From the IMG/VR virus record IMGVR_UViG_3300037471_001331: DNA of 64,000 nt; one strand, 5' to 3'. Each line of letters begins with the position of its first letter. Position 1 is the stretch's first letter. Shown piece by piece: positions 1,343 to 31,818 of the stretch. The position numbers and the translations under genes are program-made. This DNA comes from an uncultured virus (IMG/VR IMGVR_UViG_3300037471_001331). Taxonomy: Duplodnaviria; Heunggongvirae; Uroviricota; Caudoviricetes. The notes under the pieces were generated by a model that searched no databases, was not told where the DNA came from, and was given only the letters and a program-made list of their open reading frames with translations.

Positions 1343-3247
1343 TCAAAGAGCAACCTGATGATCGACGCCCTCGAGGCGCTTGTGGCTGATAATTACGACC
1401 TGCCTCAATTGTTCCCTGCAGGCCATGAGAGCATCGGCGATCGCCTGGGCGTTCGCCTCGTCGGCGTCGCTGTCGAGCTCGTCGCCGATGAACACCGGGA
1501 ACACGCGGGCGACCAGCACCTGGCCGAGGGCGAGGCGCAGGGCGAGGTTGATCATCGTCGCGTGCGCGCCGTTGAACGTCGAGACGTCCTGCCCGTCGGC
1601 GGTGATGTTCATGTCCTCGTCGACGATGATCGTCTCGAGCGGGCGCTCGGCGTTGGTGGTCATCTCACCGATTATCTTGGACGCAACCCGAGAGAGCGAC
1701 GGAGCGAGGAACGCTTTAAGCGTGCGACGAGCCTCCACCAATCCCTTGGCGCCTGCCGTGAACGCATCGGCCCGCTCCTGCTTCTCCGCGATCTCGGCGG
1801 AGAGTTCGTCGAAGCGCTGCTTGTCGGCTTCGTATCGGGCGAGCTCTCGCTCGTAGACGACGGCCGCGGTGTAAGCAGCGTTGAGATCTTCCGGAGAATG
1901 CTTCGGCGCAGGTAGATGGTCGAGCTCATATTGGGCGTTGCCGGCTTCTGCCGCACAGGCCGCGTAGTGGTCAAGCTGACGGCTGTAGACTTCCCACGCC
2001 GTGTGCAGCTGACGCGCCTCGGCCAGCTCGTCAGACTTGTCCTCGAGCTCCGGAAGGCCCTCGAGTTCTTGCCGCATCAGTTGCTTCTCATCAGCGCGGT
2101 CAAGCGCCTTGACGGCTTGAGCGAGCTCGACCGGCGGAATGCGAGTGCCCTTCGGTTTGACCAGCTCGTCGGCCCAGGCGCGGACCCGTTGCAGCTCGTC
2201 CTGCAAGCGCCGCTCGTCGAGGCGAGGCGGCGTCGAGGAATGACCAGGCTGGAACTCGTGCTGACAGTTGGGGCAGTGGACCTCGATGTCACCGATCTCC
2301 TCGAGGGCGTGGTGCTTCGCCCACATGCCCAGCGTGGTGACAATCACTTCTTCAGAAAGACCGAGGCTCGGCTGCGGGCCACGACGCTCTACCTCGGCGT
2401 CATAATCGGCAAGAGCCTGGGCCTGCTCGAGCTGCTTGCGCGTGTAGAGCGGGTCGGGGATCGACGCGATATTCCGCTCGAGCGCTGCGCGGGTTGCGGA
2501 AATCCGCACCCGTTCGACCTCGTGAGCCGCAAGCGCTTCGATGTCGGGGCAGGGCTTCGGTGGCTTCACCGGCTCCGGCGGCACCGCACCGATAATGCGC
2601 TGCAGCTCGGCGCGCGTCGCCACCGCGTTGTTCGCTTCGTCAAGCTCTGCCTTTATGTCGGCTGACGGCCGGTAAAGGTCGGGCTTGACGGGCTCCGTCG
2701 GTGGCACGAGCGCACGGCTCAGCGTCTCGGCCTCGAGACGGGCGTTCTTCGCCTCCTCGCGGCACGCCTTCTCGACGGCCTCCTGGCGGGTCAGGCCCAC
2801 GACGTCGTCGATGAGCTCCTTGCGCTTGGCCGGCGTCAGGCGGGTGAGCCGCTCGCTCTCTTTCTGGTTCGCCGCGCAGACGACGTCGAACACCTCGAGC
2901 TCGAAGCCCAGCAGCTCGACGATCTTCTTGTTCACGGCGTCGGCGCCGACGGCGAGGACCTCGTCGCCGTCCCAGCAGACGAGCTCTTCTTTCTTGCCGC
3001 GCTTCACGGTGTAGCTGACGTCACCGATCGCGAAGCCCAAGGCCATGTCCAGGCTCTTGTAGTCCGACGCCGGCCCACGCCGCGCCTTGGCCCCGAACAG
3101 GCCGTAGCGGATCATCTCGGCAACGAAGCTCTTCCCCGTGCCGTTGCGGCCGGAGATCGCGGTTGCACCCGGTTGAAAGCTTAGCTGGCCGCTCAGCGCG
3201 ACCCCATTGGTAGGGAACGTGACGGCGTAACGAAGGTCGTTGATCAT
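1343..3247 (-). CDS. SbcC/Rad50/gp46-like SMC ATPase (recombination nuclease subunit)
   Basis: Walker A GRNGTGKS, coiled coil with CPNC zinc hook, variant signature FNGAH, Walker B IGDELD, H-loop ISH; start MINDLRY with AGGAGA SD. Confidence 0.9.
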   Translation of the reverse strand: MINDLRYAVTFPTNGVALSGQLSFQPGATAISGRNGTGKSFVAEMIRYGLFGAKARRGPASDYKSLDMALGFAIGDVSYTVKRGKKEELVCWDGDEVLAVGADAVNKKIVELLGFELEVFDVVCAANQKESERLTRLTPAKRKELIDDVVGLTRQEAVEKACREEAKNARLEAETLSRALVPPTEPVKPDLYRPSADIKAELDEANNAVATRAELQRIIGAVPPEPVKPPKPCPDIEALAAHEVERVRISATRAALERNIASIPDPLYTRKQLEQAQALADYDAEVERRGPQPSLGLSEEVIVTTLGMWAKHHALEEIGDIEVHCPNCQHEFQPGHSSTPPRLDERRLQDELQRVRAWADELVKPKGTRIPPVELAQAVKALDRADEKQLMRQELEGLPELEDKSDELAEARQLHTAWEVYSRQLDHYAACAAEAGNAQYELDHLPAPKHSPEDLNAAYTAAVVYERELARYEADKQRFDELSAEIAEKQERADAFTAGAKGLVEARRTLKAFLAPSLSRVASKIIGEMTTNAERPLETIIVDEDMNITADGQDVSTFNGAHATMINLALRLALGQVLVARVFPVFIGDELDSDADEANAQAIADALMACREQLRQVVIISHKRLEGVDHQVAL

Positions 3248-3294
3248 ACGGTCTCCTGATTGCGCCTGAGCCATCACCGCAACCTCAATGCGGC

Positions 3295-3311
3295 AACTGA
3301 CCAGGTGACTT
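3295..3311. promoter_or_regulatory. Degenerate operator-like site, copy 2 (AACTGACCAGGTGACTT)
   Basis: Two mismatches to consensus; abuts the endolysin GTG between divergent genes. Confidence 0.5.
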
Positions 3312-3818
3312 GTGAAGCGAGGCGAACTTTCAGCAGAGCAGAAGAAGGGGCTGAAGGGACCGGCCCTCGCACTTGCTGCTGCCTGCGCGATCGCCGGAAC
3401 TTGGGAAGGTCTCACGCACGATCCCGTCATCCCCGTGAAGGGCGACAAGCCGACGGTTTGCCGCGGCGAGACCGAGGTGAAGATGCGGCATTACACCACC
3501 GCCGAGTGCGACAAGATGTTCGAGATCCGGATGACGTACTTCCGGGACGGCGTTCGGCGGAGGAATCCGCGCATCGTGAACTACCCGCTGACGTGGGGCG
3601 CTCACGCGAGCTTCGCATATAATACCGGTCTCGGCGCTTACAACGGTTCGAGCGTCGCTCGGCTGTTCCAGCAGGGCGCCTACGTCCAGTCGTGCCGGGC
3701 GATGCTCAAGTACAAATTCTCCGGAGGCCATGTCTACCAGGGCCTCCTCAACCGACGCCAAGGCGACAAGGCCCGGCTCGGTGAAGTCGAACTCTGCCTG
3801 GAAGGATTGAAGAAGTGA
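3312..3818 (+). CDS. Endolysin, GH24 lysozyme, probable SAR type
   Basis: Ala-rich weakly hydrophobic N-terminus followed by WEG...D.PTVCRGET, SFAYNTG, GLLNRR. Confidence 0.9.
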   Translation: MKRGELSAEQKKGLKGPALALAAACAIAGTWEGLTHDPVIPVKGDKPTVCRGETEVKMRHYTTAECDKMFEIRMTYFRDGVRRRNPRIVNYPLTWGAHASFAYNTGLGAYNGSSVARLFQQGAYVQSCRAMLKYKFSGGHVYQGLLNRRQGDKARLGEVELCLEGLKK

Positions 3819-4021
3819 AGCTGCTCGATCGGCTGAAGGCCGACCACGTCTACATCATGAAGACGCTGGCCTACATCAAGGCCCGCCTCGGCGAGAAGTC
3901 GACGCTGGGCGGCATTTGCACGGCGATCGCCGGCGGCGCCGTCGTGCCCGCGCCTTACTCCTACCTCATCATCGCGCTCGGCGTCATCGCCGTCTTCTAT
4001 CCGGAGACTCCCAAGAAATGA
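3815..4021 (+). CDS. Putative holin or pinholin
   Basis: 68 aa, two hydrophobic segments, basic C-terminus, GTGA-coupled to the endolysin. Confidence 0.65.
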   Translation: MKLLDRLKADHVYIMKTLAYIKARLGEKSTLGGICTAIAGGAVVPAPYSYLIIALGVIAVFYPETPKK

Positions 4022-4479
4022 TCGAAGAGACCGCACTCGAGGTGGGGCTGAAGCTGCTCAAGAAGTTCTGGCCCTACCTGGTCATCTCGGCCCTTTGCGT
4101 CGCGCTCGCGATCACCCGCGGCCACCTGCTCGACCTTCGCAAGGCCGACGGCGAGTTCCGGCACCAGATCGCCGTCGAGCTCCACCAGAAGAAGGAGGAC
4201 CGTCCGACGTTGCTGACGGCGCTCCACACGACCGTCGAGACGAACAACAACCGGGGCAACGCCCTGGCTCAGATCAGCCGCGAGGCATTGGAAGCCGGCC
4301 AGCGATCGAAGGCCAACGACGCAGCACTCGAGCGCCAGTTGAACGACCTTCGCGCCAAGTACGCCCTGGCCCAGCACCAGATCACCGCGCTGGAGGCCCG
4401 CAAGTCGACCGGCAACCTCGAGGCTGACTGGCAGCTGCTGGTCGAGGACACCAAAGCCGCATGGAAGGACTGGAAGTGA
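4018..4479 (+). CDS. Putative i-spanin (Rz-like)
   Basis: N-terminal TM segment (WPYLVISALCVALAI) then coiled coil; precedes a lipoprotein gene. Confidence 0.75.
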   Translation: MIEETALEVGLKLLKKFWPYLVISALCVALAITRGHLLDLRKADGEFRHQIAVELHQKKEDRPTLLTALHTTVETNNNRGNALAQISREALEAGQRSKANDAALERQLNDLRAKYALAQHQITALEARKSTGNLEADWQLLVEDTKAAWKDWK

Positions 4480-4781
4480 AGCGTACCCTCGCACTCATGG
4501 CGCTGTGCGCCGTCATGGCCTTGCTGACCGCGTGTGGGCGCGAGCCGCTGGTGGTCGAGAAGCCGGTCATCCAATACGTCGAGAAGCGGGTCGAGTGCCC
4601 GTCGGCCGAGGAGCGCGAGAAGCTTCGCCAGGCCCGGCCGAAGCCGCTGCGCGACACGCCCATGCCCGACAGCGTCGTCGAGCGTAACGGCAAGACCGAG
4701 GCCCAGCTCGGCAAGTACGAAGCCACTGGCGGCTATGCCGACCAGGTTGACGCTGCTCTCGACAGGTGCCAGCAGAAATGA
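4476..4781 (+). CDS. Putative o-spanin lipoprotein (Rz1-like)
   Basis: Signal peptide with lipobox LTAC, Pro-containing body, extra Cys residues. Confidence 0.75.
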   Translation: MKRTLALMALCAVMALLTACGREPLVVEKPVIQYVEKRVECPSAEEREKLRQARPKPLRDTPMPDSVVERNGKTEAQLGKYEATGGYADQVDAALDRCQQK

Positions 4782-5437
4782 GCACGGCGAACGAAGCCAT
4801 GGCTCGCGCCGACGCGGCCCACATCAAGATCGAGAAGCACGAGGATCTGTGCGCCGAGCGTTACGCGCACATCCACACGTCGATCAGCGCAGTGGACAAG
4901 AGCGTAGGCGAGCTCAAGAAGATCGTGGCCTGGGGCGGGTCGACCGTGTTCGGTCTGCTCATCCTGGTGCTGGGTTTTCTCGGCGCCCGCGCGATCAACG
5001 GCAACGACCAGCGGGTCGACCAGCTGCAGAACCAGCTCGACCATGTCCAGCACACGCCGGCGGCGTCTCCGACGCGAGGCTCCGACGAGCTTTCGAGCCT
5101 CGCGGCCGTCAACATGCTCGTCAACGCGATGATCACCTACGAGGACGACGAGGACCACTACGGCTCCGAGGACCTCTGGGTTCAGTATCCCAAGGACAAC
5201 AAGGGCGACTGCGAGGACTACGCCATCACCAAGCTCGGCTATCTCGAGGGCCTGGGCTGGGACGTGATCAACGACACGAAGGTCGTCTTTGTGACGGTGG
5301 GCGGTTACGGCCACGCCATGCTCGCGGTCAGGCTTTCGAACGGGCGAGTAGTCTATCTGGACAACGGCCACGCCGAGCCGATGACGCGCCGCCAGCTGGT
5401 CGAGGCGGGATACCGCTTCAGCGATTGGAAGGCCTGA
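4778..5437 (+). CDS. Membrane-anchored BTLCP/LapG-like transglutaminase-fold cysteine proteinase with holin-like N-terminus
   Basis: HEDLCAERY coiled N-terminus, one TM helix, then D.DHYG.EDLW...GDCEDYAITK...HAMLAV...YLDN (Cys-His-Asp triad). Confidence 0.85.
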   Translation: MSTANEAMARADAAHIKIEKHEDLCAERYAHIHTSISAVDKSVGELKKIVAWGGSTVFGLLILVLGFLGARAINGNDQRVDQLQNQLDHVQHTPAASPTRGSDELSSLAAVNMLVNAMITYEDDEDHYGSEDLWVQYPKDNKGDCEDYAITKLGYLEGLGWDVINDTKVVFVTVGGYGHAMLAVRLSNGRVVYLDNGHAEPMTRRQLVEAGYRFSDWKA

Positions 5438-5440
5438 AAA

Positions 5441-5624
5441 GGTTCGCCAATTTTTTCGGGCTCTATGGGGCCGAAATGGGGTTTGGAGGGCAGGTTCGCC
5501 ATCCTAAGTGCTTGACCCCGCTAGTTTATTCAAGTCCCTCCTCCGCTACCACCTCTGAAAATTATCGTGTCTTTCCAGTTGGTTCGGAGATGCGATTTGG
5601 CGAACCAATCCCCCGGTTCGCCAA
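5441..5624. mobile_element. attP: tRNA 3'-end core (5529-5551) with integrase arm-type repeats
   Basis: TTCAAGTCCCTCCTCCGCTACCA (T-loop, acceptor strand, CCA) next to the integrase stop; GGTTCGCCA at 5441, 5493 and 5615, inverted at 5598-5606. Confidence 0.85.
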
Positions 5625-5629
5625 TTTTG

Positions 5630-6682
5630 CTACTTCGCCTGGAACGAAAGAAGGTCCATTGCGGCCTCGGCTAGCCGCTCTTGGTCCGCCGCGGCAGTGT
5701 ACGTCGCGACCTGCTTGTCGTTCGACCAACCGCCCATTGCCTTGAGCTGCTGGTTCGTCGCGCCGTGGTTAGCCAGGCGAGTGGCCGCGGCCTTTCGAAG
5801 GCCGTGAGCTGTGCAGTGCGGGAGGCCCGCGGCGTCGCACCACTTCCGGAACTTGTTGCCGAAGCCATGCCGGCTGAACGGCTTGCCGTACTCGGTGAGC
5901 AGGAACGCATCGACGCCCGTCATCTTGAGTGCGCGGATCGCATCGAGCATCGGCTCGGCGGCGGGGATCAGCAGCATCTTGCCGGTCTTCTTCTGCGTGT
6001 AGCGGACCTTGTCGCCCTCGAGGTGCTGCGGCCCGAACAAATAACCGTCGCCTGGCCGCTGGAAGGTCCAGAGCATGATCTCCATCGCGGCACGCGCCGT
6101 AGTGCCGACCGCGTGGGTCGCGCGGAACTGCTCGACCTCGGCCTCAGTCCAGGTGTGGTAGCCCTTCGTCTTGGCCTTGACCCGCTCGGCGAGCTCGGCC
6201 GGGTTGGTCTGGACCCAGCCCAGCTTCATGGCGAGCGTGAAAAGTTTCACCAGCTGGCCGCGGAGCCGCTTGGCGGCATGAGGCCCGCCCGCCTTGCGGC
6301 CGTCGACGACCTTCGGCAGCGCGCGCTCCATCAGGATCGCCTCGATGTGCTGGAAATTGAAGAGCGACACTGGAATGTCGCGATGCTCCTCACGGAACGG
6401 CTCGATCACCGACCGCAGGTTGGCGCGGCGGACCTCGCTCACCTGGAGCCAGGCGGGGGTCTGGTAATAGCGGCGCACGAGATCTTCGACGCTGCGCGGG
6501 ACGATCCGCTGCGGGTCGTTGCTGACGCCGGCCAGGGCGGCGGCGTAGGAATCCTTGTAATCCGGGTGGCTGGGGTGGGGGAGGGCGACGGTGCGGCCCT
6601 TGCGGCGGAAGCGGTAACGCTCTTTCCCGTGGCGATCGACGTAGCGACTGACGTGCTTATCGAGCCTAACTTTTCGTGCCAT
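5630..6682 (-). CDS. int: Tyrosine integrase
   Basis: Arm-binding N-terminus (DRHGKERYRFRR); catalytic R (QRPGD), K, HGLRK, GGW, Y (ATYT). Confidence 0.95.
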   Translation of the reverse strand: MARKVRLDKHVSRYVDRHGKERYRFRRKGRTVALPHPSHPDYKDSYAAALAGVSNDPQRIVPRSVEDLVRRYYQTPAWLQVSEVRRANLRSVIEPFREEHRDIPVSLFNFQHIEAILMERALPKVVDGRKAGGPHAAKRLRGQLVKLFTLAMKLGWVQTNPAELAERVKAKTKGYHTWTEAEVEQFRATHAVGTTARAAMEIMLWTFQRPGDGYLFGPQHLEGDKVRYTQKKTGKMLLIPAAEPMLDAIRALKMTGVDAFLLTEYGKPFSRHGFGNKFRKWCDAAGLPHCTAHGLRKAAATRLANHGATNQQLKAMGGWSNDKQVATYTAAADQERLAEAAMDLLSFQAK

Positions 6683-6860
6683 ATTTGAGATCCAACGGAT
6701 TGATTTTCCCGGATGGAGGCAGAGACTCGGCTTCCCCGAAAATAATGTCAATGGAGCCGTCGGGCGTGATCCGCGCCCGCGCGACGGGCATGCCAGCCTT
6801 CACCGCGCCCTTGAGAGCGCGAGTCAGGTCGGACACCTTGAAGGACGCGGGCGCGGTCAC
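6666..6860 (-). CDS. Putative excisionase or recombination directionality factor
   Basis: 64 aa FKVSDLTRALKGAVKAG...ITPDGSI protein overlapping the int start, a common arrangement in alphaproteobacterial integrative elements. Confidence 0.55.
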   Translation of the reverse strand: MTAPASFKVSDLTRALKGAVKAGMPVARARITPDGSIDIIFGEAESLPPSGKINPLDLKYGTKS

Positions 6861-6863
6861 GGG

Positions 6864-7103
6864 TTAAACGCCGACCGCGGCGCGGTAGGTCTCGAGGATC
6901 GCGTCCTGCTCCTGGCGCGAATGGGTTTCCATCGCGCGAAGCTTGATCACGAGCTTCATGATTTTGGGGTCGAAGCCGTTGGCCTTCGCCTCGGCGTAGA
7001 CGTCCTTGATGTCGTCGGCGATGCCCTTCTTCTCATCCTCGAGGCGTTCGATGCGCTCGATGAAGAGGCGAAGCTGGTCGGCGGCGACGGTTCCGTCTGA
7101 CAT
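6864..7103 (-). CDS. gapR: GapR-like nucleoid-associated protein (DUF2312/UPF0335)
   Basis: [41 protein letters not shown] matches the family signature; AGGAG SD. Confidence 0.93.
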
Positions 7104-7170
7104 TGGGTACTCCTGCTGTGGAGCGTCCCGTTTGAAGAAGGAAGTCGCATAGCGGAATCTCGAAGGGGGC

Positions 7171-7187
7171 AAGTGACTTGGTCACTC
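7171..7187. promoter_or_regulatory. Operator-like palindrome, copy 3 (AAGTGACTTGGTCACTC)
   Basis: Consensus match upstream of gapR-xis-int. Confidence 0.8.
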
Positions 7188-7306: not shown

Positions 7307-8281
7307 TCAGGAAACGATCAGCCTCTCGTCAATGAAGGCCCGGACGTAATCGGGGACATCCTTAAGATGCTCGTCGAGAATGTTCTGCCAGTCGAAGGCG
7401 CCGAGCTTTTGAGCGACACTGGGTTCGTCGTCCTCGAGGGCAGTAAGACGCTTCCCAGTGATCTGGAGGCAATCGAGATCGACGGGGAGCTCCTCGCCCT
7501 CGCTGAGAAGAACTCGGACGCATTTGTCCTTGAGGGAAGCGGGGTCTTGCTCGCGGAGCTGAGCAAGGCTGAACGTCTTGTAGATTTCGCCATTCGGATC
7601 CTCGGCGTGGGTATAGGGCTCGAGCGAGCCGGTGCAGTCGACGTCGATCCCGTCGATCTTGTAGGTGCCCTCGATGTGCCAGTGACCGGTGACGATCCTG
7701 ATACAGTTCGGGAACCGCTCTTTGATCAGCTTGGCAGGCACCATGTAGCTGGTGTCACCGCCGAAGGCCTCGAGGTCGTGGTGAAGGACGACGTGCTCGA
7801 TCTCGACATTCGGTTTGGGAAACCGCTCGTTGAGCGCGTCGGCGACCGGCTTGCCCCACTCCCAGGGGAAGAAGGCGAGGGTCTCGACCTGGCCGACGTA
7901 GTCGACGAGGAACAGGTTATCGAAGCGGCCGGCCAGGATCTTCTTGAAAAGGTCCCAGGCGCCGATCGTCGCCAGCTGCCGGCTGCGGTCGTGATTGCCG
8001 GCCATGATGAAGAACTGGGTCTTCGGCCGGCGCATCGCGGCGAGCTCGTAGGCCTCGGCCGCGTCAACTATAGTAGACAGGGACACCTGCGGGTGATCGA
8101 AGAGATCGCCCATGCAGATGTTGATGTCGCAGTCGACCGCGAGCTCGTCCTTGAACTTTCTCCATTGGCGAGTTTCGCGCTCGCCGCGGCGGTGGAGAGG
8201 CACTCCGTTCTCGAAGCGCTTCCCGAGATGGGGGTCGCCCATGTGCCAGACGCGCTGGTCACAGGAGAGTTCAATCAGCAT
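7307..8281 (-). CDS. SbcD/Mre11/gp47-like metallophosphoesterase nuclease
   Basis: GDPHLG, GDLFD, GNHD, GHWH motifs. Confidence 0.9.
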   Translation of the reverse strand: MLIELSCDQRVWHMGDPHLGKRFENGVPLHRRGERETRQWRKFKDELAVDCDINICMGDLFDHPQVSLSTIVDAAEAYELAAMRRPKTQFFIMAGNHDRSRQLATIGAWDLFKKILAGRFDNLFLVDYVGQVETLAFFPWEWGKPVADALNERFPKPNVEIEHVVLHHDLEAFGGDTSYMVPAKLIKERFPNCIRIVTGHWHIEGTYKIDGIDVDCTGSLEPYTHAEDPNGEIYKTFSLAQLREQDPASLKDKCVRVLLSEGEELPVDLDCLQITGKRLTALEDDEPSVAQKLGAFDWQNILDEHLKDVPDYVRAFIDERLIVS

Positions 8282-27783: not shown

Positions 27784-28589
27784 GCGTCATTCGCCCTGTG
27801 AACGCTGTCCGACAGCTGGCGGAGCTGCATCGCTGCAACGTCCGCGCCCATGCCGGCGCCGGGGTTGGTTGGCGGGATGTGGCCGAGGCGCAGCGCTTCA
27901 GCGGCGCCGGCCAGGAAGCGGGCGAAACCGCCCGCCTGCTTGCCGACCTTGAACCGCAAGACGACCTCGCTGCCCTCGCGAGACACCTTAGCCATCCTTC
28001 ATCTCCTGGATGAGGAAAGCACGGGCGCGAGTGATCGCCGCCTCGATCTCGTCGAGGCCGTCGTCGTCCTCGTAGGTGCCGTCCTCGAGGCCGCTGGCCA
28101 GGTCGGTGGCGTACTTGTCAGCGCCTTCGATCAGCCAGGTGAGGTCGTCGACGCTCAGCGTCTGGCACTGAGGGACTTCCTCAATGACACCGCTGATGCC
28201 GACGCTGGGGTGCGCCGAGCGAACCTGGATCACAGGCTCGCCCGGGTAAGCATCGCACTCGTCGGTGAGGGGCGTGCAGACGCCCTCGACGAGGCATTTG
28301 ACGAGGATGAGGTTCATGCGACGAGCCTCATTTCGAATTCGGTTTCCCGGACTGTAGTCCGGAGCTCGAGCTTCTCGCTGTCGCTCTCGAACCACAGCCG
28401 GGCGCCGCACGGCAACGGATCGTGCGGACGGTAAATGAACTTGCCCACGACCTCTCCGTCGTGGACGAGCTCAACCTCGTGGGCCCGCTTGGAGCCCTTG
28501 TAATTGCGGGTGATGATCGCCGGCTCGTCGGTGCCGTTCTTGCGGTTGGCCGCAATCACGCACTGGGCGACGTGCAGGATCTGTTTCAC
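27780..28589 (-). CDS. Three hypothetical genes (27780-27995, 27988-28317, 28314-28589)
   Basis: Coupled ORFs; the last has the HV....I..N...PLPCGARLW pattern of a common phage protein. Confidence 0.6.
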
Positions 28590-29677
28590 GACCTCGGGCC
28601 GAGGAAGGCGTCGAGGAACAGGGCGATCAGGCCCTTCGGCTTCTCGGCCTCCTCTTCGGCCTGCTCGAGCTCGTAGTCGAAGCCCAGATTCTCGACGAGG
28701 TCGAGGGGGTGCTCCTGGCTGTTGCCGGTCCAGCTGCCGTACGGCGTATAAATCTGCTGCTCGCCGCGGCTGGGCAGGACCACGCCGGTGTACGGGTATT
28801 CCTCGTTTTCGTCGTCCTCGAAGGCGACGATCTCGACGACGCGGCCGTCGCGGGTCCGGTAATAGTTGCCGACCTCGAGCTCGTCGTCGAGCTCGCCGGC
28901 AGGCCCCGGGTCGTAGCTGTAATTGCTGACGTAGCTCGGGAAGAAGTCCTTCGCCTTGTCGCCCGGCACCTGGCCGACGACCCGATACTCGCAAACGCGC
29001 GCCTTCGAGCAATTGTAGTCGCGCGGGATGGCGACGAAGTCCTTGGGATGAACCTTGACGACCATCACGCGATCGGAGCCGCCGCCGGTGGCGGTGCCGT
29101 AGTGCGGCAGATACTTGGTGCCGCAGACGTGGAGGCCGTAGCTGCAAGTCCGGTCCGGGTCCTCGTCGACCTCGTTCCGCGAGACGGAAACGGTCTGGCC
29201 GATCGAGTTGTCGAACGTCTTGGTGTAGATGTCCCGATAGTCGTCGGTGACGATCTTGTAGGCGATCACATCACCTTCCGGAGTGATCGGCAGACCCGAC
29301 TGGACGCACCAGTCGTAAAGGCCTTCGACCGCTCGCCGGCTCGGGTTCTCCTTCACCTTCTCAAGGAAGTTGATGAGCGGCTGAGCAAGCTCCTTGTCAC
29401 CCGCTTCCATGAACTGGAGGATGCGGATGGTCAGCGAATTGTGGAGCGGCTTGCCGTCGTAGAACAGGGTCCGGTCGACGATCTGGACCTTGCCCTGCAT
29501 GAACGACGCGATCGCGCTCGGCAGGTCCATCAGCTGCTTGACCTGGTTGTCGTTGCCGGCCTTGAGGGCCGAGACGACCTGGGCGAACGCCGGGTGTGAC
29601 GCCGGCATGACTTTGGGGACGAAGTCGTCCCCGAGGACGGTGACCGAAGAACTGGTCAGGTTGTAAGTCAGAGACAT
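28586..29677 (-). CDS. rIIB: RIIB-like protein
   Basis: LPITPEG...AYK, VDEDPDRTCSYGLHV, VKVHPKDFVAIPRDYN.SKARVCEY; directly downstream of rIIA. Confidence 0.88.
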   Translation of the reverse strand: MSLTYNLTSSSVTVLGDDFVPKVMPASHPAFAQVVSALKAGNDNQVKQLMDLPSAIASFMQGKVQIVDRTLFYDGKPLHNSLTIRILQFMEAGDKELAQPLINFLEKVKENPSRRAVEGLYDWCVQSGLPITPEGDVIAYKIVTDDYRDIYTKTFDNSIGQTVSVSRNEVDEDPDRTCSYGLHVCGTKYLPHYGTATGGGSDRVMVVKVHPKDFVAIPRDYNCSKARVCEYRVVGQVPGDKAKDFFPSYVSNYSYDPGPAGELDDELEVGNYYRTRDGRVVEIVAFEDDENEEYPYTGVVLPSRGEQQIYTPYGSWTGNSQEHPLDLVENLGFDYELEQAEEEAEKPKGLIALFLDAFLGPRS

Positions 29678-31818
29678 TACAGGTTCTCCAGGAACAGCTC
29701 GAGGCGTTGATCCTCGAGCGCGGTGTGTTGGCCGAGGGCGTTGAAAAGGATCCGCGCCCGCCATTGCTTGGTCTTGAATTTCTCCACGAGCTCGTCGGGC
29801 TTGACGCCGCGCGGGAGCTTGGGAGTGACGTAGATCGCGAGCTTCATCTGCTCGTCGTCCAGCGTTTCGACGTAGTACTTGTAGAGCTTGAAGATCTGCC
29901 CGAACGGCTTCCTGGACGTGAAGTCGATGTCAGGGTTGCGGCGGAAGAATTGGTAGAAGTCCGACAAGTCAGCGTCGTGGAACAGGGCGAGGCGCTGCGC
30001 GAGCTCGGGATATTTGGCGAGCGCGGCCTTCTTGCGCTGCTCGATCTCGTGCTCGGCCCGCGTCCAGCCCTTCAGCTTTTTGGCGTCGCCGACGTTGGCG
30101 AAATGGAGCTCATCCCAGTCGATCAGGCCGGCCTTGACAGCCTGCTGAACGAACAGCGGATATTTGAAATTCTCCATGACGACGAGGATGCCGGTCTCGG
30201 GTTGGAGCTCGTACGGGACCTCCTCGACGCCGCGGAGACCGTAGACGCCGGGGTTGAGGTTGCGCTCCTCGCTGCCGTGCTTCCACGCCCAGGTGTGCCC
30301 GTCGTAGGTGAACATCCGGACCTTGGGGCGGACCTTGCCGGTATCGAGCTTGATGCGCTCGACGATCGGCTCGGGAAGCTCGGAGGTCAGCACAACCCGC
30401 GATGGGTCGGGATCGCCGAACGCCTTGATGATATCGGCCGGCGCGATGGTCTGGTCCTCGTCGGGGCGGATGACGATCGAGTTGCTCTCGACGCCGTCGA
30501 GGAACAGCTTGATCCGCTGCGACGTCCGCGAGCTCGGCTTCTGCGGCAAATCGTCGATGATGAAGAACTGGTAGTGGGCCGGCTCGAGCCCGAACTTGTC
30601 CGGATATTCGAACCGCGCGGCGCCGATCGCCTTGATACCGTCCTTGGCACGGCGGCTGGCCCGGGCGTCGCGGCCGTCGACCGTCCAGTAGGAGTAGCCC
30701 CAGCACGGATAGGTCTTGTTGTCGTACGACTGGCGAGTGCCGAGTTCGGGAAATTCGAGCCTCGTCTTGAGCGGCTGGCCGCGCCACTTGGCGTGCTCGG
30801 CAAGGAAGCTGGCCCGGGCGTCGCGGTAGCTGCCACCCACTTCACGGTGAAGGGCAACGCGCGCTTCCCAGCCGCTGTCGTAATCGTCGAACATGGTCGA
30901 GAAGGACGCGGCGACTTCGTCGATCACCGCCTCGCAGGCGACGCGGATCGCTTCGACCGTCTTGTCGTCGTAGGACAGCGCTTCCCGGCTGAGCGCGACC
31001 GAACAGGTGCCGATCGGCACCCGCAGGTCGAGGCCGTATTTCAGCAGCGCGCGGGCCGGGCTCTCGGACGGGAACTTGTAGGTGAGGTTGTCGACGTTCA
31101 CCGGATACATGACGCCGCCCATGATAATCTGGAGCGGGCCGGAGCTCGGTCGCATGCCCCAGACCTTGCCGCGGCTGACGTAGGCCGGCGGGATGAAGCT
31201 GCCCTCGGTTGCGTTCTTGATGTCGGGCAGCGGCTCGAAATATTTGAGGCTCTCGAACGCAGCCTGCTCGAACGTCGAGAAGTCGTCGGGTTTGACCGGG
31301 AAGCTGACCTCGACGCCATTGGGCTCGTTCGTGGTTCGCTGGCCGAGCAGCCCGATCGCCGGGATACCCTCCTCGTCCTTGAAGATCGAGTAGATGCTCT
31401 CGATCCCATCGAAGACGCTGCGGACGGTATATTGGTCGACGTAGGCGAACGGGCTCTTGGAGCCGATGCCGAAGCCGCCGATCGCGACGTTCGAGCCGTC
31501 CTTGGTCGAGCCGTCGGCGTAGCACATGAACTCGTTCATCATGAACGAGTGGTTCATGCCGAGGCCCTGGTCGCGGACCTTGAAAGTCGGCTCGAGGATG
31601 GTCGGGAGCCAGACTTCGACCGGCACCTCGCCCTTGCCGGCCATGACGTGGCTGTCGAAGGCGTTGGCGACGAGCTCGCGGCAGATCGCACGGGGCTTGT
31701 TGGCGTAGGTCTGGTCGGCGAAGAAGTTGAAGATCTTGGGCGACGTCTTGATTGTCGCGCGGGCAACCTGCTGGATGCCCACGGACTCGACGTCGCGTTG
31801 TTCTTTCTCAAGAAGCAT
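29677..31818 (-). CDS. rIIA: RIIA-like protein (GHKL/HSP90-type ATPase domain)
   Basis: RELVANAFDSH, DQGLGM, GGFGIGSKSPFAY, SREALSY. Confidence 0.9.
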   Translation of the reverse strand: MLLEKEQRDVESVGIQQVARATIKTSPKIFNFFADQTYANKPRAICRELVANAFDSHVMAGKGEVPVEVWLPTILEPTFKVRDQGLGMNHSFMMNEFMCYADGSTKDGSNVAIGGFGIGSKSPFAYVDQYTVRSVFDGIESIYSIFKDEEGIPAIGLLGQRTTNEPNGVEVSFPVKPDDFSTFEQAAFESLKYFEPLPDIKNATEGSFIPPAYVSRGKVWGMRPSSGPLQIIMGGVMYPVNVDNLTYKFPSESPARALLKYGLDLRVPIGTCSVALSREALSYDDKTVEAIRVACEAVIDEVAASFSTMFDDYDSGWEARVALHREVGGSYRDARASFLAEHAKWRGQPLKTRLEFPELGTRQSYDNKTYPCWGYSYWTVDGRDARASRRAKDGIKAIGAARFEYPDKFGLEPAHYQFFIIDDLPQKPSSRTSQRIKLFLDGVESNSIVIRPDEDQTIAPADIIKAFGDPDPSRVVLTSELPEPIVERIKLDTGKVRPKVRMFTYDGHTWAWKHGSEERNLNPGVYGLRGVEEVPYELQPETGILVVMENFKYPLFVQQAVKAGLIDWDELHFANVGDAKKLKGWTRAEHEIEQRKKAALAKYPELAQRLALFHDADLSDFYQFFRRNPDIDFTSRKPFGQIFKLYKYYVETLDDEQMKLAIYVTPKLPRGVKPDELVEKFKTKQWRARILFNALGQHTALEDQRLELFLENL

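Follow-up and report, generated by a model that had tools for sequence, protein, structure and literature searches.

A predicted BTLCP protease joined to a holin-like membrane module in the lysis operon of an uncultured soil phage

Lysis by phages of Gram-negative bacteria is taught as a sequence of three steps, carried out by holin, endolysin and spanin. Here, we analyze a stretch of 64,000 nucleotides from an uncultured virus of the Caudoviricetes (IMG/VR record IMGVR_UViG_3300037471_001331), termed the window throughout, and in particular the gene at 4778..5437 on its plus strand. This gene (stop codon at 5435-5437) is the last of a lysis operon and encodes a fusion protein of 219 residues, in which a holin-like module, the N-module, precedes a protease domain of the BTLCP family (Peptidase_C93). 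The reading we favor, with a probability of roughly 0.55, is that the protein is a periplasmic, membrane-tethered protease that acts as an accessory of lysis. The enzyme family as such is known; new are the phage lysis-cluster clade to which the domain belongs and its fusion to a holin-like module.

According to this reading, the gene would be translated late in infection from an overlapping operon together with endolysin, holin and two spanins. The product would insert with its N-terminus inside and its C-terminus outside. A charged N-terminus of 48 residues would then remain cytoplasmic, and the protease would be displayed on the periplasmic side of the inner membrane, with a 19-residue helix and a 9-residue linker as its tether. 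The tethered protease might then cut one or more envelope proteins and in this way aid envelope breakdown or virion release. We infer each of these elements, namely topology, late expression, protease activity, an envelope protein as target and an effect on lysis or release. If a conserved protease does belong to the lysis cluster, a protein-cutting step would be added to lysis, and its envelope target would be important for cell integrity.

The protease domain

The catalytic domain is encoded at 5081..5434 on the plus strand. It matches PF06035 over residues 99-201 with an E-value of 3.7e-19 (69.5 bits against a cut-off of 27), which bears out the family assignment made in an earlier, sequence-only reading of this DNA. 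That reading had described a HEDLCAERY N-terminus, one transmembrane segment and an intact BTLCP signature, and every string it quoted is present in the translation (H21EDLCAERY29, D126HYGSEDLW134, G143DCEDYAITK152, H179AML182 and Y193LDN196). Positions 33-132 of the 162 in the profile are aligned, while the N-terminal part of the profile is absent. D144 is invariant and E146 nearly so, and both align with the GDCED motif of LapG, in which the acidic residues flanking the catalytic cysteine presumably bind Ca2+. The triad itself, defined as for HvyA in PMC4241560, consists of Cys145 (5210-5212), His179 (5312-5314) and Asp195 (5360-5362), all of them invariant columns in an alignment of 22 sequences. 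Cys145 is one of only two cysteines in the protein, the other being Cys25 of the N-terminal motif. Neither the GDCEDY nor the HExxCAxRY motif has a further copy in the six frames of the window.

Structure prediction leads to the same family. The AlphaFold2 model, built on an alignment of 53 sequences, has a mean predicted local distance difference test score (pLDDT) of 90.8 for the whole protein and places residues 102-219 in a compact alpha/beta domain (block pLDDT 88-98, with 78 for the last nine residues). A Foldseek comparison with the PDB returned six matches at E <= 0.001, all of them LapG chains, with 4u65_E at the top (3.2e-7) and 4fgo, 4fgp and 4fgq between 5.5e-6 and 1.5e-5. These six ranks have a probability of 1.00, TM-scores of 0.49-0.56 by target and a structural identity of about 22-23%. 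Other cysteine peptidases of the transglutaminase fold are far behind, such as PeiP (8z4f_A) with an E-value of 0.11. Matches in BFVD are unnamed or generic phage proteins, for example the 'Transglutaminase' of Caulobacter phage CcrPW (E 1e-5), and the pseudomurein endoisopeptidase of psiM2 (Q77WJ4) is matched at E 0.03. The kinship to LapG does not, however, amount to orthology. The LapG equivalog NF045674 scores 31.1 bits against a cut-off of 320 with residues 99-160 alone matching, and the part upstream of the core is absent.

Homologues of the C-terminal half are about 146-208 residues long. Close relatives of the protease domain have a hydrophobic N-terminus in 39 of 39 cases, five of these with a lipobox-like motif. 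On the strength of sequence and model, the domain is a genuine BTLCP with an intact triad and a LapG-like fold; the protease activity itself is predicted.

The N-terminal module and the fusion joint

The N-module comprises residues 1-92 (4778..5053, plus strand). Its extent is given by stand-alone homologues, by the helix in the AlphaFold2 model and by the point at which DNA homology to a sister phage ends. It is laid out as a helix with the HExxCAERY motif, a transmembrane helix at residues 49-73 (4922..4996, plus strand) and a short helix thereafter; in the model residues 2-92 form one continuous helix with block mean pLDDT values of 86-95. The transmembrane helix is the single strongly hydrophobic segment of the protein (the top Kyte-Doolittle mean over 19 residues, 2.1, starts at residue 49), and the protein has no cleavable signal. 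When relatives are aligned with the first 98 residues of the window's protein, there is no variation at His21, Glu22, Cys25, Ala26, Arg28 and Gly54 and almost none at Tyr29. The free-standing homologues found in the search of representative proteins have 93-141 residues, plus one of 161. The IMG/VR loci listed encode shorter proteins, mostly of 60-80 residues with the motif near the N-terminus and the transmembrane segment at the C-terminus, on contigs of 31-65% G+C. In one relative of 125 residues (P0068) a HEDICALRY helix occurs three times in tandem ahead of the transmembrane helix.

The sequence-only reading had called this part holin-like. The term holds for the place and the shape of the N-module, but not in the sense of a holin family, since the N-module has no match to the described holin families in Pfam, PHROG and NCBIfam at the thresholds used. 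More generally, no family above threshold in Pfam, NCBIfam or the named PHROGs covers it. Its PHROG matches are phrog_37133 and phrog_38642, both of 'unknown function', an ESM Atlas look-up of the N-terminal part returned unnamed, mostly viral clusters with scores below 0.9, and no match at E <= 0.01 was obtained when this part was compared by tblastn with 50,697 phage records. Two candidate families were rejected. For XhlA (PF10779) the best score was 26.1 bits (P0109) against a gathering score of 34.7, with sub-threshold matches in 6 of 12 stand-alone homologues, 1 of 15 viral representatives and none for the N-terminal part of the window's protein. A head-formation family of gene transfer agents (NCBIfam) reached E 6e-5 at best, below its cut-off, and we take this as a likeness of helical repeats.

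Sequence comparison shows that the protein arose recently, by fusion of two modules, each of which is found independently in lysis clusters. A scan of 1.84 billion representative proteins gave 1783 matches at E <= 0.001, and the sole match at E <= 1e-30 was the protein itself. Among the best 150 of the 1783, one covers both halves (again the protein itself), 20 cover residues ~2-104 only and 129 the C-terminal part only. A word-indexed search of 5.8 billion proteins found a single orthologue with both modules (P0002), which has 230 residues, is 78% identical and lies on 3 contigs. The fusion occurs in these two proteins, while each module alone recurs in lysis clusters. Scans of metagenome contigs with either of the two proteins confirmed no relative, and tblastn of the whole protein against the same 50,697 phage records gave nothing beyond one weak match, in Vibrio phage Va2.

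Comparison of the two fusion proteins is informative for the joint. Identity is high in the transmembrane helix (23/25), the periplasmic helix (17/19) and the BTLCP domain (98/118), whereas the linker keeps 5 of 9 residues and is longer by an insertion of 7 residues in P0002. Strong conservation of the modules together with a variable linker is what one expects of a functional protein with two domains that a free linker joins. In the window's protein the linker spans residues 93-101 (5054..5080, plus strand), with a mean pLDDT of 60 for the block 91-100 and neither helix nor strand according to DSSP. In secreted relatives the domain is preceded by a conserved P...R(AKFP) segment, to which P94 and R100 of the linker align. 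This places the joint approximately at the end of the signal peptide of these relatives and suggests that the N-module has replaced this signal peptide. LapG cuts at di-alanine. A notion of self-cleavage on that basis was dropped, as the linker in the window has Ala-Ala and that of P0002 does not.

At the level of assembled contigs, one contig from a possible source run covers 4400-5700 with no differences. In a run from another study and another year (X12), four identical pieces cover portions of both modules; none of them spans 4975-5171, so the fusion joint is without independent contig support there. The fusion ties together two uncharacterized families, the HExxCAERY membrane module from phages across the above range of G+C and the phage BTLCP clade, and with the topology proposed here it would point to the periplasmic face of the inner membrane as the location of the protease.

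Lysis clusters and the phage that carries them

The five genes of the operon form a short island on the plus strand, all overlapping and flanked by minus-strand replication genes. The first encodes an endolysin of the GH24 type, a phage lysozyme (3312..3818; PF00959 E 2.9e-20, phrog_7 E 3.3e-24), whose N-terminal segment is rich in Ala and Gly and resembles a signal-anchor-release (SAR) sequence. The candidate holin (3815..4021) has 68 residues and was assigned by size, a hydrophobic segment at about residues 42-60, position and homology; it has no family match in Pfam, PHROG or NCBIfam. The i-spanin candidate (4018..4479) has 153 residues with an N-terminal transmembrane segment (hydropathy peak at residue 17) and a helical periplasmic part, and it matches no spanin family in Pfam or PHROG. 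The o-spanin candidate (4461..4781) is a lipoprotein of 106 residues with an LLTAC lipobox and a weak match to phrog_456 'Rz-like spanin' (E 6.7e-4). The latter two genes have the architecture of a two-component spanin, in which the gene with the N-terminal transmembrane segment overlaps the lipobox gene by 19 nucleotides. The other junctions are GTGA between endolysin and holin, ATGA between holin and i-spanin, and again ATGA between o-spanin and the fusion gene, where the ATG at 4778 overlaps the o-spanin TGA. The coupling of the protease gene to the o-spanin gene as fifth member of the operon, already proposed in the sequence-only reading, is thus seen in the DNA. Translation could alternatively start at an in-frame GTG (4766), and no promoter-like site was found within 3100-5800.

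The sister phage mentioned above is an 81-kb viral contig (L003) with the same order of SbcC, lysis operon, integrase and SbcD as in the window. Its operon ends with an N-module gene of 96 residues, without a protease. The DNA of the two phages is collinear across the spanins and the N-module until about 5049, which corresponds to the stop codon in L003, and there the similarity ends. At the protein level, the o-spanin candidate is 62% identical to its counterpart, and the i-spanin candidate is 41% identical over 156 residues to the protein in the i-spanin position. Endolysin and holin, in contrast, are unrelated to those of L003, where 3239-4206 has a PF11860 muramidase. The window's endolysin is instead related to those of four phage loci with stand-alone BTLCP genes, L050, L051, L052 (35% identical) and L053, and its holin to small holins of L050 (34% identical) and L053 (36%) that adjoin the endolysins there. 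This split in homology shows the operon of the window to be a mosaic, with spanins and N-module of the L003 kind and endolysin, holin and protease domain of the L050-L053 type. The two sister phages, with swapped endolysin and holin next to homologous spanins and N-module, are also in their own right a clear example of mosaic exchange inside one operon.

Both modules can be followed into further lysis clusters. A pattern scan of IMG/VR, taking the best 600 stretches, gave at least 46 N-module loci confirmed by tblastn; 42 of the 46 listed have a complete open reading frame (ORF; L007, L014, L027 and L032 do not), and the loci fall into 17 clusters at >= 70% identity. PHROG scans at E <= 1e-6 covered 62 of 87 neighboring ORFs, the 25 outermost being left out. 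Among the matches listed, an endolysin or holin lies within four genes of the N-module in 10 of the 17 clusters (represented by L003, L004, L008, L010, L011, L021, L024, L025, L026 and L043). The seven without such an annotated neighbor are L005, L033, L034, L039, L042, L044 and L047; in several of these, the N-module gene has tail-fibre genes ahead of it and unannotated small membrane proteins behind it. The N-module follows the o-spanin in L003 and in the unrelated L004, as it does in the window. Annotated holins that are unrelated (phrog_3427) also occur alongside N-modules. In the cultured Shewanella phage vB_Sb_QDWS (L209, 2983-3833) an N-module is encoded as gp21, a 'hypothetical protein', and its gene overlaps the start of the endolysin gene gp20; gp21 may offer an experimental handle on the family.

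For the protease domain, a quick maximum-likelihood tree of 91 rows groups the window, P0002, P0003, L050-L053 and 14 more in a clade of 21 rows, with a support of 93 in the Shimodaira-Hasegawa-like approximate likelihood ratio test (SH-aLRT). In all four clade loci with known context, L050-L053, a phrog_7 endolysin is encoded in the same small cluster. The protease gene of L050 and L051 is flanked by endolysin/holin on one side and by a spanin-like gene with a transmembrane segment on the other, and in L053 it is found directly 3' of the endolysin, with a lipoprotein/transmembrane-protein pair opposite. L053 (4036-4233) further encodes a protein of 65 residues just before the holin, endolysin and BTLCP genes, with a coiled coil and a C-terminal transmembrane segment; it has the layout of an N-module, a different sequence and a sub-threshold match to XhlA (E 0.0027). 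The lysis-linked role that had been proposed from the window gains from both surveys, since N-modules turn up repeatedly in lysis clusters and the stand-alone BTLCPs closest to the window's domain adjoin endolysins.

The phage from which the window derives is temperate, about 88 kb in size and of soil origin. The stretch is present in soil and rhizosphere metagenome runs and has a G+C content of 63%. A PHROG scan of 50 window ORFs identified DNA polymerase, primase, helicase, ligase, ribonucleotide reductase and thymidylate synthase, and also terminase, portal and major head protein, in line with a large tailed phage; no tRNA gene was found in the window. The same scan revealed an SbcC-like gene (1346-3277) and an SbcD-like gene (7310-8281), both on the minus strand. 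SbcC and SbcD genes are usually neighbors. Here the lysis operon, the integrase gene, a small ORF and a GapR-like gene lie between them, and the pair is interrupted likewise in L003. The tyrosine integrase gene (5630..6751, minus strand; PF00589 E 6.1e-17) is convergent with the lysis operon. The GapR-like DNA-binding protein (6867-7172, minus strand; PF10073 E 2.8e-34) is encoded by a gene with 71% nucleotide identity over 131 bases to a gene of Rhizobium phage RL38J1 annotated as 'UPF0335 protein'. We take the GapR-like gene as a pointer to an alphaproteobacterium, which probably is the host. Homologues of rIIA and rIIB are encoded at 28589-31818 on the minus strand (phrog_612 E 5.6e-101 and phrog_609 E 1.1e-71) in this integrase-bearing phage.

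Between the lysis operon and the integrase gene, the intergenic stretch 5438..5629 contains GGTTCGCCAA(TTTT) repeats; GGTTCGCCAATTTT is present twice (at 5441 and 5615), and three sites carry AGGTTCGCCA or a close variant of it. An inverted copy gives a 10-bp hairpin at 5597-5624 that is followed by a T-run. The hairpin is a weak candidate for a terminator, with 3 terminator-like sites observed against 2.1 expected in shuffles, and a function of the repeats as attP or integrase-binding sites would be a guess.

A role in lysis, its alternatives and known systems

The predicted topology is based on three arguments. We assign the N-terminus to the cytoplasm and the protease to the periplasm because no signal precedes the long charged N-terminus, because most free N-modules are tail-anchored in design and because every relative of the protease domain is exported. 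A protease domain outside the cytoplasm, as assumed in the sequence-only reading, is thus also what we would predict.

Several observations weigh against a role in lysis. A viral pattern scan gave 263 stretches with a BTLCP relative, of which the best 80 loci were kept, one being the window's own phage. A complete ORF was present in 76 of the 79 remaining (L087, L117 and L120 were dropped), and these form 54 clusters at >= 85% identity. All 182 neighboring ORFs within three genes and of at least 85 residues were scanned against PHROGs, at 1e-6 for the first 30 clusters and at 1e-8 for the other 24. A lysis-annotated neighbor was found in only 10 of the 54 clusters (L050, L051, L052, L053, L058, L070, L084, L099, L111 and L112), and in 6 of 50 outside the window's clade. 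Therefore, linkage to lysis is not general for viral BTLCPs. Within the clade the link comes from four loci, with the context known for these 4 relatives and not for the other 16. A search of 401 sampled alphaproteobacterial genomes for the close clade, at a threshold chosen to exclude chromosomal paralogues (E <= 1e-18), found no member and so gives no prophage or host example in favor of the role. The positive-inside rule is uninformative on the orientation, as the net charges of the transmembrane flanks are +1 and 0. The N-module, as described, matches no known holin family, and activity, topology, expression and substrate of the protein are predictions from sequence and model. Moreover, the sister phage L003 manages without the protease, which must therefore be non-essential to this type of operon, and the end of an operon beside an integrase is also a typical position of a moron.

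The 44 BTLCP clusters without a lysis-annotated neighbor are mostly proteins of 120-130 residues that lack a signal peptide and adjoin tail-fibre, terminase or nucleotide-metabolism genes. Such signal-less proteins (L056, L061-L066, L072-L078, L086, L090-L108 and others) occur on phage contigs of 34-57% G+C, where their genes mostly have tail-fibre genes on one side and terminase or methyltransferase genes on the other. The proteins are probably cytoplasmic or virion-associated and have a function different from that of the window's clade.

A bolder form of the lysis reading, which we consider doubtful, would see in the phage BTLCP clade a dedicated extra lysis function that severs protein tethers between outer membrane and wall, or other envelope struts, in hosts without Lpp-type anchoring. 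In the window, delivery of the protease and permeabilization of the membrane would then be coupled by the holin-like fusion, and the enzyme would be a protein-cutting counterpart of LysB from mycobacteriophages.

It seems unlikely, although less so than the other alternatives, that the protein remodels the cell surface in the manner of LapG or HvyA. Such an enzyme would cut the retention part of a giant adhesin or a component of capsule export, and the resulting shedding might aid escape from biofilms or alter superinfection. LapG chains are indeed the only solved relatives, and the GapR-like gene fits an alphaproteobacterial host, in a group where BTLCPs are common (2-5 paralogues each in three genomes). 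According to PMC4241560, HvyA, a periplasmic BTLCP of Caulobacter, blocks capsulation, alters phage sensitivity and needs its Cys, His and Asp residues. The low equivalog score and the missing N-terminal part ahead of profile position 33 (of 162) do not fit a LapG-type enzyme, and no adhesin, LapD or capsule gene was seen nearby among the scanned window genes, in which no dedicated LapA/LapD search was made. The chromosomal BTLCPs among the matches listed are distant, being 27-45% identical over part of the domain, with 31-44% identity for those from the scan of genome contigs, and no lysis cluster was found at any of the six inspected loci L129, L130, L131, L137, L170 and L196. A surface remodeler would also have no need to sit inside clusters of endolysin, holin and spanin genes, as the relatives in L050 and L051 do. 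Adhesin cutting or biofilm dispersal, the function favored in the sequence-only reading, is a guess.

Somewhat less likely still is a second cell-wall hydrolase that would cut peptidoglycan stems or cross-links, or the links between proteins and peptidoglycan, and so complement the muramidase, comparable to the pseudomurein endoisopeptidases of methanogen phages. The clade loci with known context always have a glycosidase-type phrog_7 endolysin, which such an enzyme would complement, and a membrane tether would restrain it until the holin fires, in parallel to SAR endolysins. Fold matches to wall peptidases exist (PeiP and the psiM2 enzyme, E 0.03-0.11) but are far weaker than those to LapG at 3e-7, and the protein has no cell-wall-binding domain. 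Most relatives carry ordinary signal peptides, and a free wall hydrolase exported before the holin acts would be expected to lyse the cell early.

We regard as improbable that the protein is a device for lysis timing, with an N-module of holin or antiholin type and a periplasmic domain that acts on holin, spanin or endolysin anchor, or that serves as a sensor. N-modules fill the usual slot of the holin just upstream of endolysins, the 219-residue layout with a cytoplasmic N-terminus, one transmembrane segment and a periplasmic domain would suit such a device, and the cytoplasmic helix bears conserved His, Glu and Cys residues that could act as a switch responding to metal or redox state; the phage also carries the rIIA and rIIB homologues. 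Yet a separate holin candidate is present at 3815-4021, the co-occurrence of N-modules with unrelated holins speaks against the binding of one specific holin, the protease domain is related to enzymes that are secreted in free form and not to sensors, and the similarity to XhlA is sub-threshold throughout. Least probable of all is a moron or lysogenic-conversion gene that is expressed in the lysogen and alters the host surface without a role in lysis: the gene is the last ahead of the intergenic repeats, a possible attP, and the integrase gene, the protease is missing from L003, and PMC11283719 ranks BTLCP first in frequency among the 'auxiliary metabolic genes' of single-virus genomes from rivers and describes signs of its transfer from one viral cluster to another, but the window's gene overlaps the o-spanin gene, has no promoter-like site of its own in the region searched and consists of a conserved lysis-cluster gene to which only the protease domain was added in frame, and the stand-alone relatives in L050 and L051 lie inside their clusters and not at the ends.

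For the lysis accessory that we favor, no precedent was found. The sequence-only reading knew of no described example, and a full-text search agrees, in that it found no paper that places a BTLCP in a phage lysis cluster or links BTLCPs to lysis cassettes; the supplements of PMC11283719, which possibly list gene neighborhoods, were outside its scope. PMC11283719 treats the viral BTLCP as an auxiliary metabolic gene and PMC13603594 mentions LapG as a host protein only. For the clade of the window, the context argues for a lysis gene rather than an auxiliary metabolic gene.

Among known systems, LapG of Pseudomonas fluorescens and Legionella pneumophila (PF06035, MEROPS C93) shares with the window's protein the fold, the Cys-His-Asp triad and the GDCEDY motif, and it is periplasmic, as is predicted for the domain described here. 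In contrast to LapG, the window's protein is encoded by a phage, fused to a membrane anchor and part of a lysis operon, with no LapD or LapA context seen; it is also non-orthologous, distant in structural identity and devoid of the N-terminal part of the profile. HvyA of Caulobacter crescentus is closer in its setting. As described in PMC4241560, it is a periplasmic BTLCP that carries a Sec signal, depends on its triad and blocks capsulation. Compared by description, both proteins are BTLCPs of an alphaproteobacterial setting with a bearing on the interaction of phage and host, whereas HvyA has 272 residues and is chromosomal, cell-cycle-regulated and encoded in a capsule locus. The nearest relatives are the stand-alone secreted BTLCPs of phages (L050-L053; P0003-P0040), with 38-57% identity in the domain. 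They share the C-terminal signature MTRxEL...GYxFxDW and the P...R segment, and they adjoin GH24 endolysins and a related small holin, as does the window's gene. However, they carry a cleavable signal peptide or a lipobox where the window's protein has the N-module. The literature searched contained no description of any of them.

Additional enzymes in lysis clusters have been known before. LysB of mycobacteriophages is a lysis-cluster esterase that cuts the tether of an outer layer, and PeiW and PeiP are pseudomurein endoisopeptidases of methanogen phages, PeiP being a cysteine peptidase of the transglutaminase fold that cuts wall peptides. These enzymes are precedents for an extra enzyme in a lysis cluster, although LysB has another fold and the matches to the Pei fold are weak. 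On the side of the membrane anchor, the N-module family (for example gp21 of vB_Sb_QDWS) aligns with residues 1-92 and occupies the same place in lysis clusters. Its members have 60-140 residues and end soon after the transmembrane segment or a short coiled coil; an enzyme domain is attached only in the window's protein and in P0002. Holin T of phage T4 (class III) has a cytoplasmic N-terminus, one transmembrane helix and a large periplasmic domain, and XhlA from the lysis cluster of Bacillus PBSX combines a cytoplasmic N-terminus with one transmembrane helix. By description, both resemble the window's protein in layout and in their place in the lysis cluster. Here, in contrast, the predicted periplasmic part is an enzyme.

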